Below, one piece after another: positions 9,319 to 64,000 of a stretch of DNA of 64,000 nucleotides. The stretch comes from an uncultured Planctomycetaceae bacterium (GTDB taxonomy: Bacteria; Planctomycetota; UBA1135; GCA-002686595), in contig CAZWAY010000005.1 of NCBI GenBank assembly GCA_964631945.1, forward strand, positions 53,669-117,668, written 5' to 3'. The position numbers and the translations under genes were made by a program. Numbering within the stretch: position 1 is the first letter of the stretch; every line of letters begins with the position of its first letter. The notes beneath the pieces were generated by a model. The model was not told the DNA's origin. It did no database searches and saw only the letters and a list, made by a program, of their open reading frames with translations.

Positions 9319-11265
9319 TCAGCCCTCCTTGCGCAGCGCCGCGAGGATGCGCTCGAGCCAGCGCGCGGAGCGGTCGAGGCCACCGGGGCGCGAGCGCAGC
9401 AGCCACAGCTCGCGGTGACGCTGGATCAGGGGCTCGAGGAACTCGGCCAGCGTCTCGCGTCGGCGTGCCGGTAGTTCTTCGAGCCCACGACCCTCGCCGG
9501 CCTCGAGGCGCCATTCGCCGAGGAAGCAAGTGAAGCGGAGGAGCTCGGCGGCCCACGACAGTTCTTGTCGGGCCAGGACGCCCTCGGTCGTCCTGGGAGC
9601 ATCGCCGCGGATGGAATCTCCGCCGAGGGAGGTCATGCGGGCCACGCGCCGAAGCCTCTCCGTATGGAGTCCGCGCAACTCGGGCGGCGGGAACGGCTGG
9701 TCGAACCTCGTGAGCAGCAGCGACAGCGCCGAGGCGTTGCGCACGGGCCGAGCGCATTCCGTTGCGAGCCCCCCGAGTCCGCTCATTGCGCCACCGAGGG
9801 GGCTCTGCGGGTCGCCGAACAGGTGCAGGTTCAGCAGTCTGGGAAGGGGCCACACGCCGCTCCCGCGCGCGTCGGCCGTCGGATTCCAGGCGAGATCGGC
9901 CGCCCGCAGGTAGCCGCTCCAGCTCACGCTCGGCGGCTGCAGGTGCCCGCGGTCGCCCCAGTCGGTGATCAGCAGTCCGCGCGCGCCGCGCTCGGCGCCC
10001 CAGCGCGCCGCCGAGGCGACGTTCGCGAGCATGTTGTCGATGCGCCCGCCGATCGACTGCCACGAGCCCGTGCCGGGGCAGACGTAGAACGGCAGGCCAG
10101 CGTCGGCGAGCGTCTTCGTCTGTTCCTCGAACGGGTGGTCGGCCTCGTAGCCCCACAGGCACGCGACCGCGTCCTTCGGCACCTCGGGCACGAGCTCCGC
10201 ATGATTCAGCAGGATGTCGGCCCAGAACTGCATGCGCCTGCCGCGCGCGCTGACGAGGCCGTGGACCGACCTCAGGAAGCCGAGGTAGACGCGCCCGACG
10301 CCCTGCGCGCGGATCGCGGCGGCGGAACGGCCCGGCCGGCCCTCGTCGCCCAGGTCGATCGTCTCGTCGAGCCCCACGTTGAAGTCGCCGCTCGTGAAAC
10401 ACGGCAGCAACTCGTCGTAGAGCCCGCCGAGGAACGCGAGGCTCCCCGGATCCGTGGGGCACAGGCTGAAGGGCTCCGCGTGCGTCTCACCCGCGCCGAG
10501 GAACGGGTGCACGAGGCCCTCGGGCACCTCGGCCAGGTGGCGGTACTCGGAATGCTTCAGCCAGTGGTGCAGGTGCCCGAAGCTCTGCTGGTTGGGGACG
10601 AGCTCGACCCCGTGCGCGGCGCAGTGGCGGTCGAGGGCGCGGATCTCGTCGTGCGTGAAGGGATCGACGCCGCGCCAGATGCGCTCGTGCGCCCGGTAGG
10701 CGAAGGCGTGCTCGCAGTAGAGCTGCAGCTCGTTCAGCTTCCACTCGGCGAGCCGCTCGACGAGCGCGAAGAGAGCGTCCATGCGCGGCACGCGGTCGCG
10801 GCTGACGTCGAGCATCACGCCGCGGCGTTCGAACGCGGGTGAGTCCTCGATCGCCAGCGCCGGCAAGGCGAGCTCGTGCCGCTGTCTGGGTGCGCCGCCT
10901 TCTGCTCCCTCGACCTGCGCCGTGCGCACGAGCTGCAGCAGCGTGCGCAGGCCGTGGTTCAGCCCGACCCCGCGGCTCGCCACGAGGCGCACGAGCCCCG
11001 GCTCGATCGTGAGTCCGTAGCCCTCGCGCGCATGTCCCGAGCGTCCGTCGAGCACGAGCTCGATCGCCTGCGGGCCCACGCCGAGAGCCACGCCGCGGCG
11101 CTCGAGCTCGAGGCGCAGACCATCCAGCGCCGGCGAGGCGAAGCCCGGAGGCGGCCGCAGGGCGAGCGGCGGCGAGAGCCGGAAGACGCCCGGACGCCGC
11201 TCGATCCGGCGCGGCGCGGGCAGCAGGAGATCCAGGCACGGGTCGAACGCGCTCATCGCGGGCAT
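9319..11265 (-). CDS. Glycoside hydrolase family 20 beta-N-acetylhexosaminidase
   Basis: RGVMLDVSRDRVP, ELVPNQQSFGHLHHW, and DETIDLG in GH20 catalytic (beta/alpha)8 context. 648 aa. Alternative start at M4 (nt 11256). Confidence 0.85.
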   Translation of the reverse strand: MPAMSAFDPCLDLLLPAPRRIERRPGVFRLSPPLALRPPPGFASPALDGLRLELERRGVALGVGPQAIELVLDGRSGHAREGYGLTIEPGLVRLVASRGVGLNHGLRTLLQLVRTAQVEGAEGGAPRQRHELALPALAIEDSPAFERRGVMLDVSRDRVPRMDALFALVERLAEWKLNELQLYCEHAFAYRAHERIWRGVDPFTHDEIRALDRHCAAHGVELVPNQQSFGHLHHWLKHSEYRHLAEVPEGLVHPFLGAGETHAEPFSLCPTDPGSLAFLGGLYDELLPCFTSGDFNVGLDETIDLGDEGRPGRSAAAIRAQGVGRVYLGFLRSVHGLVSARGRRMQFWADILLNHAELVPEVPKDAVACLWGYEADHPFEEQTKTLADAGLPFYVCPGTGSWQSIGGRIDNMLANVASAARWGAERGARGLLITDWGDRGHLQPPSVSWSGYLRAADLAWNPTADARGSGVWPLPRLLNLHLFGDPQSPLGGAMSGLGGLATECARPVRNASALSLLLTRFDQPFPPPELRGLHTERLRRVARMTSLGGDSIRGDAPRTTEGVLARQELSWAAELLRFTCFLGEWRLEAGEGRGLEELPARRRETLAEFLEPLIQRHRELWLLRSRPGGLDRSARWLERILAALRKEG

Positions 11266-53838: not shown

Positions 53839-54648
53839 CTAGTAGCGGTCGCGGTACTCCTCGGGGAGCAGCGCATCGAGCGGGTCGCCGTGGCCCTGGC
53901 TCGGGAACGGCGCCTGGGGCTGGTGGCCAGGCTGCGTAAACTCGCCCGAGATCGCGTCGAGCTTCTGCATCGTCTCGTAGAAGTCGATGCCGCTGCCTGC
54001 GACCTGCGGCTGACCCTGTCCGTGGAGGGCGTGGGGCGCGACACCCGCGGGCGGAGCCGACTGGGCGCTGCCGAGCACGCGCCGGACCTCCTGGGTCGCG
54101 TGCAGCAGAGCCTCGAAGCCCGCGCGCAGTTGCAGGTCGACCGCGTGCACTCGCTCGTCGAAGTGCGCGTGCAGCTTGTCGAGGCTCGCCGCGAGGCGGA
54201 AGACGGCGTCCTGCGAGTGGTCTCCGGCCGTGTTCTTGTCGTCCTGGCTCTGCATCTGGGCCTGCTGCTGGCTCGCGACCGCGGTGATGCTCTCGTGGAT
54301 CTGGAGCAACGAGGTGCGCAACTGGGCGAGCTTGGTCGAGAGCTGATCGTTCACGAGGTGCAGCTCGGCCTGCAGTGCCTCGCTGCTCTCCGAGTGATCG
54401 CTCTGGGGCAGCGTGGCCGGAGCCGCCGCGCGCGCCACGATCCCGAGCCCGAAGAAGAACAGTCCGCCCACCACCAGGGCGCCGTTCTGCACGCCGAAGG
54501 CGGCTGCCTGGCGCGCGATCTTGGCCACCTGCCAGGAGTACTGCGGCGCCAGTGCGAAGGCCACGCCCGTTGCCACGAGCGCGAAGCCGACGAAGAACAG
54601 GAAGCCTGCGCCCTTGTGCGAACGGGTTGCGAATTCGGTCGAGGCCAT
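53839..54648 (-). CDS. Hypothetical two-TM membrane protein with C-terminal Gln-rich coiled-coil
   Basis: Start MASTEFATRSHKGAGFLFFVGFALVATGVAFALAP at residue 58 of ORF 53839..54819. Second TM is ALVVGGLFFFGLGIV. Then LQAELHLVNDQLSTKLAQLRTSLLQIHESI. Confidence 0.5.
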   Translation of the reverse strand: MASTEFATRSHKGAGFLFFVGFALVATGVAFALAPQYSWQVAKIARQAAAFGVQNGALVVGGLFFFGLGIVARAAAPATLPQSDHSESSEALQAELHLVNDQLSTKLAQLRTSLLQIHESITAVASQQQAQMQSQDDKNTAGDHSQDAVFRLAASLDKLHAHFDERVHAVDLQLRAGFEALLHATQEVRRVLGSAQSAPPAGVAPHALHGQGQPQVAGSGIDFYETMQKLDAISGEFTQPGHQPQAPFPSQGHGDPLDALLPEEYRDRY

Positions 54649-60600: not shown

Positions 60601-61167
60601 CGCCACGCGCTCGGCCGGGTCGAGCGGACGTGCGCTGCGCGTGCGCGCGACGGATCGTCGCGCGAGCGCGGCCGGCGACACGGCGACGAACAGCCGCCGC
60701 GCGGGCACGCGCCCGGCCAGCGCGAGCGCGAGCCGCGGGTGATCGACGAGCAGGAACAGTCCCTCCTGGAAGCGCTCGACCGCCGCGACGAGCTCGAAGT
60801 GCTCGGGCGCGAGCCCGCGCTCGTGCTCCGCGCGATCTCCGGGATCGCCACCGAGCTGGCGCGCCGAGACCAGCTTGCACAGGTTGCGGTAGCCCTGGGC
60901 GTCGCTCGCCAGCGCGATCACGCGTCCGGGACGTCCGCTCGGATCGCTGAGCTCCGCGCCGAGGATCGGGCGCACGCGCGCCGTGTTCGCTCCGCCGTCC
61001 AGGCGCTCGGCCGCCTTCAGGAAGTCCACCGAGCCGCCGAGCGTGTCCACGTCGGTGAGCGCCAGCGCGGGCAGAGCGAGCTCCGCCGCGCGCGCGAGCA
61101 GCGCCGCGGGGGGATCGACGCCGGTCAGCAGGGAATGCCAGCCGTGGCTGCGCAGGGGGACGTACAT
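57688..61167 (-). CDS. dnaE2: Error-prone DNA polymerase DnaE2 (ImuC), 1159 aa
   Basis: PHP domain LRSHGWHSLLTGVDPPAAL, and polIII-alpha core GIPSVGRGSAADSLVAYCLELTDADP, GLVKMDLLGNRALTV, and FGFCKAHAVTYGRIAYRTAYLKAHHP. The overlapping 1225-aa ORF 57635..61312 in another frame is junk. Confidence 0.9.
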   Translation of the reverse strand: MYVPLRSHGWHSLLTGVDPPAALLARAAELALPALALTDVDTLGGSVDFLKAAERLDGGANTARVRPILGAELSDPSGRPGRVIALASDAQGYRNLCKLVSARQLGGDPGDRAEHERGLAPEHFELVAAVERFQEGLFLLVDHPRLALALAGRVPARRLFVAVSPAALARRSVARTRSARPLDPAERVALLPAPKVPPPARAVPAQELLACARAARLATLAVPDVHCARAADYAAHRVRAAIKHNALRCDLAREWLAEEPAHLLGSAEMATLYAGLPECRGPFRASKKGVLGLLARTLEIAEACRYVPPLGGVLFPSIELEGHETPYSALCALAFDGARKRYTPLRPEVVRRLEHELAAIEGLGFAPYFLLVKKIADFARARGIPSVGRGSAADSLVAYCLELTDADPLRYRLPFERFLNPARKDRPDIDLDFCWRRRDEVLAEVGTAFGLERTAMIATLSTFGMRAAFRAVALAEGLAPVEVNRWSRRLPGMGAELGAAEAGTGEVPDGSEEEEEEGREGERARDDTPLLHALPPALAHDPIARTLAATPECRGFPFEDPRHAFVLRMASALLDCPRHLGLHPGGVVVTPGPITDFVACQRAAKGVIVTQLDKDGVEAIGLVKMDLLGNRALTVVDDCLRALGLSHAELARIPEDDERTGALLERGATLGCFQIESPGMRNLLQQTGARTMDAVIQAVALIRPGPAGSGMKDAFIRRFRGLEPPHAPHPRLEELLAETQGVMLYQEDVMQVVVLLAGFELSEADLLRRALAKRRGPELIELRARFLAACEGERIARCDAERVWELVANFSAFGFCKAHAVTYGRIAYRTAYLKAHHPAEFLTAFLNSQTGYYDARVYVEEARRLGVPILPPDVNRSDTGFTLERGGRDGTPALRVGLERVKGLSEATRQALLAERERGGPYLSLPDFVERSGARADESERLILCGALDAFDRTRPEMLLRLHLLSSPARRPPSGLDARALAACRTSPAARERASGWSRPALAPDARRLRPGESTPLFPAPPPSALALPALPEFDPVRRGRLELELLGLTVCAHPTTLFPCLARDEHGASLPCAELAHRRGERVQLVGWLAASRPVRTSAGGWMRFLTLEDESGIAEVVVFPPVYARDGHRLIGRGPFRIHGRVEEHLGACTLHAERIG

Positions 61168-61197
61168 GGGCGCTCGATGACGCCCCCCACGGCCCGG

Positions 61198-61215
61198 ACC
61201 CTAACAAAAGGCGAA
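61198..61215 (-). promoter_or_regulatory. Conserved 18-nt motif (coding-strand TTCGCCTTTTGTTAGGGT) about 30 nt upstream of dnaE2: candidate SOS operator overlapping an extended -10 (TGTTAGGGT)
   Basis: 16 of 18 nt identical to the motif at 63876-63893 upstream of imuB (TTCGCCATCTGTTAGGGT). Resembles a GTTC-N7-GTTA direct repeat. Confidence 0.45.
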
Positions 61216-61314
61216 TCCGCCGTCCAGTTCTCCGGCGCGGTTCGCCGCGGTGGACGCCGCCCGTCCGCACCCCCAGAATGCCCGCCTTCCATTTCCCCCG
61301 ACGAACGAGCATCC

Positions 61315-61449
61315 ATGGGCAGAGGCGACAAGAAGACGCGGCGCGGCAAGATCTCGAATGGCACCTTCGGCAAACGCCGCCCGCGCCTGCGCAACGTGAA
61401 GTCGGCCGCCAAGAAGGCTGCCAAGGCCGGCAAGCCGGCCCCCAAGTAG
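61315..61449 (+). CDS. 30S ribosomal protein bTHX (Thx) homolog, 44 aa
   Basis: MGRGDKKTRRGKISNGTFGKRRPRLRNVKSAAKKAAKAGKPAPK. Compare Thermus Thx [24 protein letters not shown]. It is the tail of the spurious 448-aa ORF 60103..61449. Confidence 0.55.
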   Translation: MGRGDKKTRRGKISNGTFGKRRPRLRNVKSAAKKAAKAGKPAPK

Positions 61450-61495
61450 TTCCCCGCGCGGGGGCGCCCCGCCTCGCCCGCCCGACTTCCGGCGT

Positions 61496-62437
61496 TCAGA
61501 CGCCCAGCAGACCGCGCAGCGCGCCGAGGTCTGCGTGGCGTGCGCTGGCCGCGATCTCGGCCGCGTGCCGGGGTTCGAGTTCGCGCGCGCGACCGAGCAG
61601 CTCGGCGAAGAGCTGCTTGAGCTCGCTGCCCGAGAGCGTGCGCCCGCCCGCGTAGTAGCGCTTGGCCGCGTGCCCGAGCGCGTAGGTGGTCGCGAACGAG
61701 AAGCCCGCGCCCGTCGCGCCGCGCGCCAGTCCGCCGAGCAGGCCGCCCGCCGCGCGCCCGAACAGGCCACCGACGAGCTGGCGCGCGAAGCCCTCGATCA
61801 GCTGCGAGGCCAGGCCCACGCCGGCCACACCCAGGAAGTCCTGCACGTGCCCGCGGTCGAGCTCGAACCCGTGGCGCTTCCCGATCTGGTACACCAGGCG
61901 CATCTGCAGCGGCAGGATCGCGAGCGTCGCCAGGCGCTGCGGCAGGAGCTCGAGCCCGCCGCACAGGATCGCCTGGCGCAGGATCAGCGCGTCGAGCTCG
62001 GCCTCGCCCGTCGGCCCCGCGGCGGACGTCGTGCCGCTCAGCGGCGCGTCCGCGAGCGCATCCGCCTCGCGCCGGAAGCGCTCGGTACTCGTGCTCGACA
62101 GTCCGAGCGCGCGCGCCAGCTCGTCCAGGAACGCGCGCTCTGCCTCGTTCGTCGCGCCGTCCGCGCCGCACACGCAGGTCGCGAGCTCGTGGGCCAGTTC
62201 GCGCGCCGCCGGCGAGGTCAACTCGTGAGCGCTCTGCGCGAGCCCGCGCCGTCCGTCCTCGACCTCGCTCCACAGCGTCTCGACGTCCAGCCCCTCGCTC
62301 CCGATGCGCCCGAGCGCGGCGTGGATGGCGGTCTTCTCGCGCTCGTCACGGGTCCCGTCGGCGCGCGCGGCGAGCAGCGCGATGGTCAGCAAGGCTCGCG
62401 AGTTCTGCGTGTCCATGCCGTGACTGTATCTTTCCAT
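61496..62437 (-). CDS. TerB-like (DUF533-type) N-terminal domain protein with Gly-rich C-terminal domain
   Basis: C-terminal 313 aa of ORF 61496..63688: LLTIALLAARADGTRDEREKTAIHAAL...NEAERAFLDELARALGL (TerB-like), then RLVYQIGKRHGFELDRGHVQDFLGVAGVGLASQL...FATTYALGHAAKRYY. Alternative start MDTQNSR (62416). Confidence 0.55.
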   Translation of the reverse strand: MERYSHGMDTQNSRALLTIALLAARADGTRDEREKTAIHAALGRIGSEGLDVETLWSEVEDGRRGLAQSAHELTSPAARELAHELATCVCGADGATNEAERAFLDELARALGLSSTSTERFRREADALADAPLSGTTSAAGPTGEAELDALILRQAILCGGLELLPQRLATLAILPLQMRLVYQIGKRHGFELDRGHVQDFLGVAGVGLASQLIEGFARQLVGGLFGRAAGGLLGGLARGATGAGFSFATTYALGHAAKRYYAGGRTLSGSELKQLFAELLGRARELEPRHAAEIAASARHADLGALRGLLGV

Positions 62438-62481
62438 GCGCACGGGACGAGGGCCATGACCACGCGCACCGAGGACGCCCG

Positions 62482-63852
62482 TCACTGATTCAGCGACGGC
62501 GTGCGCAGCCGGAAGCCGTCGGGGCGCAGCGGGTGGCTTTGCGCGAGCGGCGTGCTCGTGCCGCGCAGGATGCGGCCGAAGCCGAGCTTCGCGCGCAATT
62601 CGTCGAGGGCGTGGTCGAGGCGGCGGTGGCGGTCGGCGCGGCTGGCGTCGTGCGTCGCGGGCCCGGGGCAGTCGTGGGCGAGCTCGTCCGCGCCCGAGAA
62701 GAGTTGCCCCTGCCAGCCGGGCGCGCGCGCCAGGCCGTGGAAGGCGATCCCGAGGCGCTTCAGCAGCGCGCGCTTCCTCGGCAGCGTGCGGTAGAGCGCG
62801 AGCGCGGCGCGCCACAGCTCGTCGGTCGCGTCGCTGGGCGCGCTCAGGGCGCGCCGGCGCTGGGCCGCCAGGCCCTCCTCCGACCACGCGCCCGGGCGCG
62901 GGTTCGTGTCGACCCAGCGCACGCGCACCTCGAGCGTGCGCGCCTGCACGCCGAGCGCGCGCAGGCGCTGCGCGCCGCGCTCGACCAGGTACGAGAGCAT
63001 CGCCTCGACCACCTCCGGGCGGCCCTCCTCGGGCTCGAAGGTGGTCTCGCGCGAGAGCGACTTCGGCGGGCGCGCCAGCAGCGCGCCGTCCTCGCCGAGC
63101 GCGTGCGTGGCCTCGACCGGGGCCTCGTCGCGGCCGTGGGCGCGCTCGAACAGCACGAGTCCGGCGCTGCCGAAGGCGGTGAAGAGCACCTCGCGCGAGA
63201 GCAGGCGCAGCTCGCACACTCGCCGCAGCGCGAAGCGCTCGAGCGCGGCGCCCGTGGCGTGCCCGACGCCGGGCAGGTGCTCGAGCGGCAGCGCGCCCAC
63301 GAAGGCGAGCTCGTGCCCGGGCAGGACCTCGCACACGCCGGCGGGCTTGGCGAGCTTGCCCGCCAGGCGCGCCACGAGCCGGTTCGAGCCCACGCCGACG
63401 GTGAGCGCGAGGCGTGTGTGCGCCTTCACTGCGCGCTGGATCGCCAGCGCGGCGTCGAAGGCCGCGCCGAAGAGCCGCGCGCTGCCCGTCAGATCGAGGT
63501 AGAAGTCGTCGATCGAGGCGACCTCGACACGCGGCGTGAAGCCCAGCAGGACGCGCGTGGCCTCGTCGCGCAGGCGGTTGGCGGCCTGCGAATCGCCGTC
63601 GCGGAACAGCGCGCGTGGACAGCGGCGCTTCGCCTCCGAGAGGTGCATGCCCGCGCGCACGCCGAAGGCGCGCGCCTCGTAGGAGCACGACATCACCAGG
63701 TTGCGCGAGGTGGGCGCGCCGCCGACGACCACCGGCTTGCCGACCAGCTCCGGGTGCAGCGCCTGCTCGACGGACGCCAGGAAGGCGTCCACGTCGAGGT
63801 GCAGGATGCGGCGCGTGGTGCGCGGGAGGAGGGCGTCGCGATGGGGGGGCAC
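62482..63852 (-). CDS. imuB: ImuB (Y-family DNA polymerase-like, catalytically degenerate) of the imuB-dnaE2 mutagenesis cassette
   Basis: RRILHLDVDAFLASVEQALHPELVGKPVVVGG (Y-family N-terminus), and SIDDFYLDLTG. GTG start at 63852 chosen because the shared upstream motif lies at 63876-63893. The ORF track extends to 63981, so the start is uncertain. Confidence 0.75.
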   Translation of the reverse strand: MPPHRDALLPRTTRRILHLDVDAFLASVEQALHPELVGKPVVVGGAPTSRNLVMSCSYEARAFGVRAGMHLSEAKRRCPRALFRDGDSQAANRLRDEATRVLLGFTPRVEVASIDDFYLDLTGSARLFGAAFDAALAIQRAVKAHTRLALTVGVGSNRLVARLAGKLAKPAGVCEVLPGHELAFVGALPLEHLPGVGHATGAALERFALRRVCELRLLSREVLFTAFGSAGLVLFERAHGRDEAPVEATHALGEDGALLARPPKSLSRETTFEPEEGRPEVVEAMLSYLVERGAQRLRALGVQARTLEVRVRWVDTNPRPGAWSEEGLAAQRRRALSAPSDATDELWRAALALYRTLPRKRALLKRLGIAFHGLARAPGWQGQLFSGADELAHDCPGPATHDASRADRHRRLDHALDELRAKLGFGRILRGTSTPLAQSHPLRPDGFRLRTPSLNQ

Positions 63853-63875
63853 GCTCGGGATCCTCGCTGGCCGAA

Positions 63876-63893
63876 ACCCTAACAGATGGCGAA
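63876..63893 (-). promoter_or_regulatory. Second copy of the conserved motif, 24 nt upstream of the imuB GTG
   Basis: Plus strand reads ACCCTAACAGATGGCGAA, versus ACCCTAACAAAAGGCGAA at 61198-61215. Confidence 0.45.
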
Positions 63894-64000
63894 CTTCGGC
63901 GCCCCGGGCCGCCCCCCGAGGGGCGGGCGCTAGGCTGTGCCGCCCATGGAACTCGTGCTCGTCCACCCGGAGATCCCGCACAACTCCGGTTGCGCCGCGC

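Follow-up and report, generated by a model that had tools for sequence, protein, structure and literature searches.

The motifs read by the SOS regulator LexA differ greatly among phyla and have been used to trace the co-evolution of a regulator and its sites. In Alphaproteobacteria the LexA box is the direct repeat GTTC-N7-GTTC (PMC4951493, PMC8565304), and in Verrucomicrobia it is the palindrome TGTTC-N4-GAACA (PMC4951493). Until the 2016 study of Verrucomicrobia, the SOS response was undocumented for the superphylum that unites Planctomycetes, Verrucomicrobia, and Chlamydiae (PVC) (PMC4951493). Our literature search, whose coverage was incomplete, found no LexA motif for the Planctomycetes and only the Verrucomicrobia SOS motif for the superphylum; an earlier description is possible. 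LexA also regulates the imuA-imuB-dnaE2 mutagenesis cassette, of which variants lacking ImuA are known (PMC6511836, PMC3919608); in the Bacteroidetes variant, an apparently active PolY is paired with DnaE2 without ImuA (PMC6511836). Here, we describe two copies of a motif in a 64-kb stretch of DNA (hereafter the window) from an uncultured, high-GC (~72%) bacterium of the Planctomycetota. One copy precedes a gene for a DnaE-type polymerase and the other a gene for a Y-family polymerase (polY), and both are very probably LexA operators.

Like the alphaproteobacterial LexA box, the motif is a nonpalindromic direct repeat with an 11-bp period and a GTTC core, and it sits on lexA promoters and on those of error-prone polymerase genes. 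Sites on the lexA promoters of the clade have the form GTTC-N7-GTTC and, as in GTTCGGGACTTGTTCGGGT, match the alphaproteobacterial core at 8 of 8 positions. The agreement is 7 of 8 for the window copy before polY (box 2, GTTC-N7-GTTA) and 6 of 8 for the copy before the dnaE-type gene (box 1, ATTC-N7-GTTA). The differences are the host, here a member of the Planctomycetota, and a longer conserved half-site, GTTMGGG, in which position 4 may be A or C. Alphaproteobacterial LexA also has a different-looking recognition helix. With the box of the sister phylum Verrucomicrobia, the motif shares the GTTC core, the tandem sites on lexA promoters, and the control, here predicted, of lexA together with polymerase genes, a dnaE2-containing cassette in Verrucomicrobia. 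However, the Verrucomicrobia box is a palindrome with a 4-bp spacing, whereas the motif described here is a direct repeat with 7 bp between the cores. A familiar type of switch seems to operate in a phylum where it is apparently undescribed.

Two copies of a direct repeat upstream of polymerase genes

The initial annotation of this DNA had pointed to a near-identical 18-nt motif in front of two genes that it named dnaE2 and imuB, and both copies are indeed present on the minus strand. The 18-mer TTCGCCTTTTGTTAGGGT occupies positions 61198-61215, and 30 nt separate box 1 from the ATG (61167) of the 1,159-aa DnaE-type open reading frame (ORF). The 18-mer TTCGCCATCTGTTAGGGT occupies positions 63876-63893, and 23 nt separate box 2 from the GTG (63852) of the 456-aa Y-family polymerase ORF. 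The two sequences are identical at 16 of 18 positions. When up to three mismatches were allowed on both strands of the 64 kb, these boxes were the only matches, for an expectation of 0.09, and two or more relaxed matches occurred in 2 of 100 shuffled sequences. A position weight matrix used at 14 bits or more on the window and on some 85 kb of related loci identified no third site. By our own rough estimate, it would not be unusual for two arbitrary 18-mers in a GC-rich sequence of 64 kb to agree at 16 of 18 positions. The significance of the pair lies instead in its A/T-rich composition, which is unusual in a window of about 72% GC, in its location within two promoter regions and, most of all, in its conservation in other genomes.

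This conservation was followed in 8- to 21-kb pieces of related genomes (loci numbered with the prefix L), set beside the 64 kb of the window genome. Among the syntenic loci, the motif precedes both genes in L001, L003, L004, and L006, and polY in L005 and L007. Over all loci, orthologous sites were found upstream of dnaE-like genes in L001, L003, L004, L006, L016, L025, L036, L043, L044, L047, L070, L080, and L084, and upstream of polY in L001, L003, L004, L005, L006, L007, L016, L030, L047, L074, and L086. The sites are GTTCGCCATCTGTTAGGGT and GTTCGCCATCCGTTAGGGT in L001 (86% PolY identity), TTTAGGTATCTGTTAGGGT and ATTAGGTATCCGTTAGGGT in L003 (82%), GTTCTGCATTTGTTAGGGT and GTTCTGCGTTTGTTAGGGT in L006 (65%), and GTTAGGCATCTGTTAGTGT in L007 (59%); PolY of L004, where the motif also precedes both genes, is 71% identical. 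The sequences flanking the motif are not conserved among these relatives.

The invariant part of the motif is TT...T..GTTAGG.T. The 5' half-site differs from genome to genome, yet the two genes of one genome share it: the window and L001 have TTCGCC, L003 has TTAGGT, and L006 has TTCTGC. Such a joint change at two genes is the pattern expected of sites read by one co-evolving protein. The motif of L003, TTAGGT-ATCTG-TTAGGGT, is a direct repeat whose period is 11 bp. In L005, the half-site variants are swapped (GTTAGGCTTTCGTTCGGGT); its 3' half GTTCGGGT has lost the TAnnnT hexamer and the repeat is kept. The clade consensus is GTTMGG-N5-GTTMGGGT, that is, GTTC-N7-GTTC/A with the same period. 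The two half-sites, which suit a dimeric repressor, are clearest in L003, in L005, and in the sites on lexA promoters. The resemblance to a GTTC-N7-GTTA direct repeat of the alphaproteobacterial type, proposed from the window alone, is therefore borne out by a repeat conserved in relatives. The companion proposal of an extended -10 (TGnTAnnnT) did not hold: the TG is present in both window copies but is replaced by CG in the dnaE sites of L001 and L003 (CCGTTAGGGT). As the TG is not conserved and L005 loses the hexamer but keeps the repeat, the selected feature is the direct repeat and not an extended -10.

The position of the motif is also that of an operator: both window sites lie 23–30 nt before start codons and contain a TAnnnT hexamer, and the boxes of relatives either overlap the -35/-10 region or fill it. 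In the window, the putative -10 at the 3' end of each box reads TAGGGT. Hexamers resembling a -35 occur 17–18 bp upstream at several dnaE promoters (TGGACG in L001, TTGCCT in L003, and TCGACA in L016, L025, and L044), and no -35 was recognizable at the polY promoter of the window. Orthologous polY genes have their start codons only 6–13 nt after the motif, which suggests that their transcripts are leaderless or very short-leadered. In the window, the 23-nt leader before the GTG of polY carries a Shine–Dalgarno-like GAGGA.

The motif at lexA promoters

We scanned 185,579 species genomes with the pattern TTCGCCWTYYGTTAGGGT and obtained 84 loci, 16 in Planctomycetota and 68 in other organisms. 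Fourteen of the 16 Planctomycetota matches lie before functionally linked genes, eight upstream of dnaE-like genes, four upstream of polY, and two in the promoter regions of lexA operons. In one of the latter (L069), the match is followed by a 36-aa membrane peptide ORF and then by lexA, with a second, inverted copy 12 bp upstream. In the other (L081), it has a peptide-lexA operon on one side and a nadB-like gene on the other, and a degenerate copy, CTTAGGGGCCTGTTAGGGA, faces lexA. The two remaining Planctomycetota matches were treated as probable chance matches; one is upstream of a kinase-like ORF (L045, 54% GC) and one, in a member of the Phycisphaerae, has no gene start nearby (L061, 58% GC). 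The 68 matches outside Planctomycetota (within L008-L087) are background: they fall mostly within long ORFs, on the opposite strand, and in genomes of medium or low GC content. Several of them read as the stretch DKTGTLTxGE around the phosphorylation site of P-type ATPases, a coding-sequence source of false positives for scans with this motif. A genome-wide scan had been expected to find the motif before lexA, recA, and imuA as well; it did reach lexA-operon promoters besides the polymerase genes, but no imuA exists at the locus.

An independent set was provided by 80 LexA loci from metagenomes, retrieved with two LexA proteins. The matrix applied to them was built from 11 polymerase-gene sites only, and matches of 16 bits or more were counted. 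The 600-nt regions before lexA, 41.5 kb altogether, held 12 of them (0.289 per kb), compared with 5 in 610 kb elsewhere (0.0082 per kb), a 35-fold enrichment. The box is found on the lexA promoters of L069, L081, L093, L094, L095, L105, L108, L113, L123, L139-L141, L148, L172, L175, and L176. Typically, such a promoter carries two boxes 34 bp apart, for example, GTTCGGGACTTGTTCGGGT and then ATTAGGCTCCTGTTCGGGT, followed by a small peptide ORF and by lexA. The box is exactly the 17-bp spacer of the promoter in L172 (TTGCAC-TTCGCGCTTTGTTAGGC-TATACT), L175 (TTGACA-TTCGCCCTCCGTTCGTC-TAACTT), and L113 (TTGACG-TTCGGCCGATGTTAGGT-TATGCT). In L176, it begins at the -10 and overlaps it, and in L069 and L094 its orientation is inverted. 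Its variable position and its tandem and inverted copies indicate that the motif is an operator and not a promoter element. The LexA proteins of the clade bear the annotation "repressor LexA [Planctomycetota bacterium]" and have the canonical cleavage site AAGxP (103 of 120 proteins), the GxSM motif (120 of 120), and the KR motif (114 of 120), with the catalytic Ser and Lys kept.

The shared SOS/LexA regulator that had been postulated for the two window genes is thus supported by the motif before both genes in relatives and before lexA in Planctomycetota genomes and metagenome contigs. On sequence grounds, the box is most likely a LexA operator of the Alphaproteobacteria-like GTTC-N7-GTTC type whose 3' half doubles as the -10 TAGGGT. 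Some observations weigh against this interpretation. Searches by tblastn with LexA and Escherichia coli RecA as queries found neither lexA nor recA in the window or in L001–L007, and no recA in any of the 172 sequences searched; the link to LexA is therefore drawn from other genomes of Planctomycetota. The perfect copy in L081 is directed at the nadB-like gene and not at lexA. As for the proposed -10, TAGGGT agrees with TATAAT at 3 of 6 positions only, and a strict sigma-70 scan of positions 61100-64000, for whose threshold this hexamer is too weak, predicted no promoter.

Three other explanations were considered. Control of the polymerase genes and lexA by a DNA-damage regulator other than LexA is unlikely. 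Damage regulons of this kind exist in other phyla, such as those of PafBC in Actinobacteria and DdrO in Deinococcus, and the lexA of the window organism is missing from the available sequence. However, the motif lies on the lexA promoter in many loci, often in two copies, which is the classical signature of LexA autoregulation; its architecture equals that of the LexA box of Alphaproteobacteria (PMC4951493), and no other regulator gene is conserved beside these loci. Still less probable is a mere promoter element, either an unusual or extended -10 or a site for an alternative sigma factor. The sequence TGTTAGGGT does fit TGnTAnnnT, the distance from box to start codon suits a -10, and the -35-like hexamers of several dnaE promoters have a suitable spacing. 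This explanation is contradicted by the loss of TG in L001 and L003 and of the hexamer in L005, by the lexA promoters of L172, L175, and L113, in which the motif fills the spacer and both a good -35 and a good -10 lie outside it, and by the inverted and tandem copies. In addition, the 6 nt between the 5' half-site and the hexamer are too few for a -35, and no further copy occurs in 64 kb that must hold many promoters.

We regard as highly improbable the explanation that the two copies resemble each other by chance or were left behind by a short mobile or repetitive element. In its favor are the frequency estimated above for 16/18 matches in biased DNA and the two shuffled sequences with paired relaxed matches. 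Against it, the motif is kept at the same two genes down to 59–65% protein identity, with unconserved flanks; 14 of the 16 Planctomycetota matches precede three functionally linked gene families; and the 35-fold enrichment upstream of lexA also contradicts it.

If the boxes are LexA operators, the established behavior of LexA allows us to infer how they would work. A LexA dimer would bind both half-sites of the repeat. As the 3' half-site, GTTAGGGT in the window, contains the likely -10, bound LexA would block RNA polymerase at the promoters of the dnaE2-like gene and of polY, and probably of the terB-like gene that follows polY. Occlusion of a promoter by a repressor is textbook regulatory logic. 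Upon DNA damage, LexA would cleave itself under stimulation by RecA and so release both promoters. The two translesion polymerases, which may cooperate, would then be induced together, though they are encoded by separate transcription units 2.7 kb apart. This would be of moderate interest, mainly for the evolution of the SOS response and for Planctomycetota biology. A Planctomycetota direct repeat beside the Verrucomicrobia palindrome would be a data point on the interconversion of repeats and palindromes, and SOS regulons would become predictable in hundreds of uncultured genomes.

The two DNA polymerases

The product of polY was initially labeled ImuB, an assignment that we replace. Family models and structures match the 456-aa protein to DinB/Pol IV only, and no ImuB relative closer to it than DinB was found in the Protein Data Bank (PDB). 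It contains the active-site motifs HLDVDAFL and SIDDFYLD and a clamp-binding-like motif, QGQLF, which is followed by a short C-terminal tail of about 70 residues. In an alignment with E. coli DinB, HLDVDAF and SIDDFYLD correspond to D8 and D103/E104, with Glu replaced by Asp; the E. coli protein reads SLDEAYLD where PolY has SIDDFYLD. The steric-gate Phe of DinB is a Leu in PolY (HLDVDAFL). These features are not peculiar to the window: HxDxDAFL is present in 113 and IDDF in 97 of 120 homologs, the Asp-Asp pair and the steric-gate Leu are each found in about 100 or more of the 120, and the QGxLF motif is conserved in most. Leu at the steric-gate position recalls mycobacterial DinB2, a ribonucleotide-incorporating enzyme. 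Neither imuA nor any other RecA-like gene is present at the locus, where the neighbors are trmL, the terB-like gene, thx, and dnaE. Because it keeps the acidic active-site residues and matches only DinB/Pol IV, PolY is, as judged from its sequence, a DinB-like polymerase and not a catalytically dead ImuB.

The GTG at 63852, preferred as the start codon of this gene from the outset, is supported by the N-terminus of the protein, (M)PPHRDALLPRTTRRILHLD, which agrees with the N-termini MAHRD... and MPPHRD... of orthologs, and by a database protein of 456 aa identical to the window PolY. An exact-protein look-up of the window PolY returned no match, and homologs were used in its place.

The DnaE-type protein comprises a PHP domain, the polymerase core, a finger domain, and an HhH domain, and its extreme C-terminus (residues 1084-1157 of 1,159) is an OB fold. 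The alignment with Thermus aquaticus DnaE1 ends at residue 1094 of 1,220, which indicates that the window protein is devoid of the tau-binding C-terminal domain. According to Timinskas and Venclovas, this domain is absent from every DnaE2, and a DnaE2 is always accompanied by a DnaE1 (PMC3919608). In lacking any tau-binding domain after the OB fold, the window protein has the architecture of a DnaE2. However, its scores remain below the curated cut-offs of both classes, with 567 bits for a cut-off of 939 with the NCBIfam model of error-prone DNA polymerase (NF004225) and 618 bits for a cut-off of 1,002 with the DnaE1 equivalog model (NF004226). In tblastn searches against plasmids, it was about equally similar to plasmid-borne DnaE2 and DnaE1 (33–37%), so that the classes were not separated, and no DnaE2 relative closer to it than DnaE1 was found in the PDB. 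The isoelectric point of its core, 6.57, is weakly DnaE2-like. The dnaE2 label therefore fits the architecture and the context of the gene but not the curated models, and we refer to the gene as dnaE2-like.

The locus can now be compared with the imuA-imuB-dnaE2 cassette. Both combine a Y-family homolog with a nearby second DnaE lacking the C-terminal domain, under apparent LexA control and in a GC-rich genome. The nearest described arrangement is the Bacteroidetes PolY-DnaE2 variant without ImuA. In contrast to the cassette, the window locus has no imuA, and its Y-family member keeps D, D, D (E changed to D) and has a short C-terminal tail in place of the ImuB-C domain. Its genes form separate transcription units, each with its own operator, with the terB-like gene and a divergent thx between them, and its DnaE scores below the NCBIfam cut-off for error-prone DNA polymerases. 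A direct-repeat box in Planctomycetota would point to an active-looking DinB-like enzyme plus a DnaE2-like one, without ImuA and ImuB, as the system by which this lineage mutates inducibly after damage.

A broader proposal is plausible but tentative. In a large, mostly uncultured lineage of Planctomycetota, LexA may read an Alphaproteobacteria-like direct repeat, and the core of its regulon may be an undescribed two-polymerase module without ImuA and ImuB, with one operator per gene. The module would consist of a DinB-like enzyme with the Asp-Asp pair and a steric-gate Leu and of a DnaE that lacks the C-terminal domain and falls outside both the DnaE1 and DnaE2 models; a small membrane peptide would be encoded on the same transcript as lexA itself.

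Neighboring genes and further observations

The coordinates of all features are given in table 1.

Table 1. Features of the window and small peptide ORFs of lexA loci, with their positions.
Feature	Position	Strand	Basis or remark
DnaE2-like Pol III alpha homolog, 1,159 aa	57688..61167	minus	Domain matches, alignments
SOS box 1, candidate LexA operator	61198..61216	minus	ATTCGCCTTTTGTTAGGGT; aTTCGcc + GTTAGGG direct repeat, 11-bp period
Putative -10 TAGGGT, dnaE2-like promoter	61198..61203	minus	3' end of box 1; predicted
Putative -35 TGGACG	61221..61226	minus	17 bp upstream of TAGGGT; predicted; same hexamer and spacing in L001
thx, small ribosomal protein bTHX	61315..61449	plus	Divergent from the dnaE2-like gene
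TerB/DUF533-like protein, 306 aa	61496..62416	minus	Pfam matches
PolY, DinB/Pol IV-like Y-family DNA polymerase, 456 aa	62482..63852	minus	Family models, structure matches, active-site motifs
SOS box 2, candidate LexA operator	63876..63894	minus	GTTCGCCATCTGTTAGGGT, i.e., GTTC-N7-GTTA
Putative -10 TAGGGT, polY promoter	63876..63881	minus	3' end of box 2; predicted
Peptide ORF, L069	7108-6998	minus	
Peptide ORF, L172	2781-2876		
Peptide ORF, L175	2763-2858		
Peptide ORF, L081	2496-2413	minus	

The polY homologs with 59–87% identity are labeled as metagenome-assembled genomes of Planctomycetota and keep the order SpoU methyltransferase / polY (terB-like) thx / dnaE. Homologs of PolY and LexA alike are labeled Planctomycetota or Planctomycetaceae, and the host is thus not an alphaproteobacterium. 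A divergent SpoU-type (trmL-like) methyltransferase gene lies upstream of polY, as indicated by its N-terminus in the window and by the Pfam SpoU_methylase match of the syntenic gene in relatives. The terB-like gene is on the same strand as polY, 65 nt downstream, and the scan of positions 61100-64000 found no terminator-like site. It is probably co-transcribed with polY and may be placed by read-through under the polY operator and induced in the SOS response. L001 and L003 have the gene and L004 and L006 lack it; it thus does not belong to the conserved part of the locus. The intergenic region between thx and the dnaE2-like gene is 147 bp long and holds box 1. The thx neighborhood is kept in L001, L003, and L004; in L001, a thx-like frame is visible in the sequence upstream of dnaE, where no gene was called.

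A relaxed-pattern site, ATTCGCAACCCGTTCGCA (54612-54633, minus strand), was rejected, as it lies within the first codons (MASTEFATRSHK...) of an ORF and such sites occur at chance frequency. The site is a direct repeat of the GTTCG type, weak but likewise with an 11-bp period, and the ORF encodes a probable membrane protein. In L005, the gene downstream of polY was checked as a possible dnaE and is not one. In L007, dnaE is no longer adjacent to polY, and the strong box GTTAGGCATCTGTTAGTGT (9568-9586), with TTGACC before it, is some 415 nt upstream of the start called for polY. This gap may reflect a mis-called start, a long leader, or a small unannotated ORF. The perfect copy in L081 (region 2390-2855) is 160 nt before the nadB-like (L-aspartate oxidase/FAD) gene, on the side of the intergenic region opposite the peptide-lexA operon. 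LexA may control a gene of NAD synthesis there, or the two transcription units may merely share a divergent control region.

Many Planctomycetota loci contain, between the SOS boxes and lexA, an ORF of 27–36 codons encoding a single hydrophobic helix, such as MARLAGLIPSIREDALVVVALLAVLCTALLG. Besides the four ORFs listed in table 1, it was seen upstream of lexA in L093, L095, L098, L105, and L108. The small ORF is apparently co-transcribed with lexA. SOS-induced membrane peptides that act as division inhibitors or toxins include SidA of Caulobacter and TisB of E. coli, and by analogy the lexA-linked peptide could be one of this kind.

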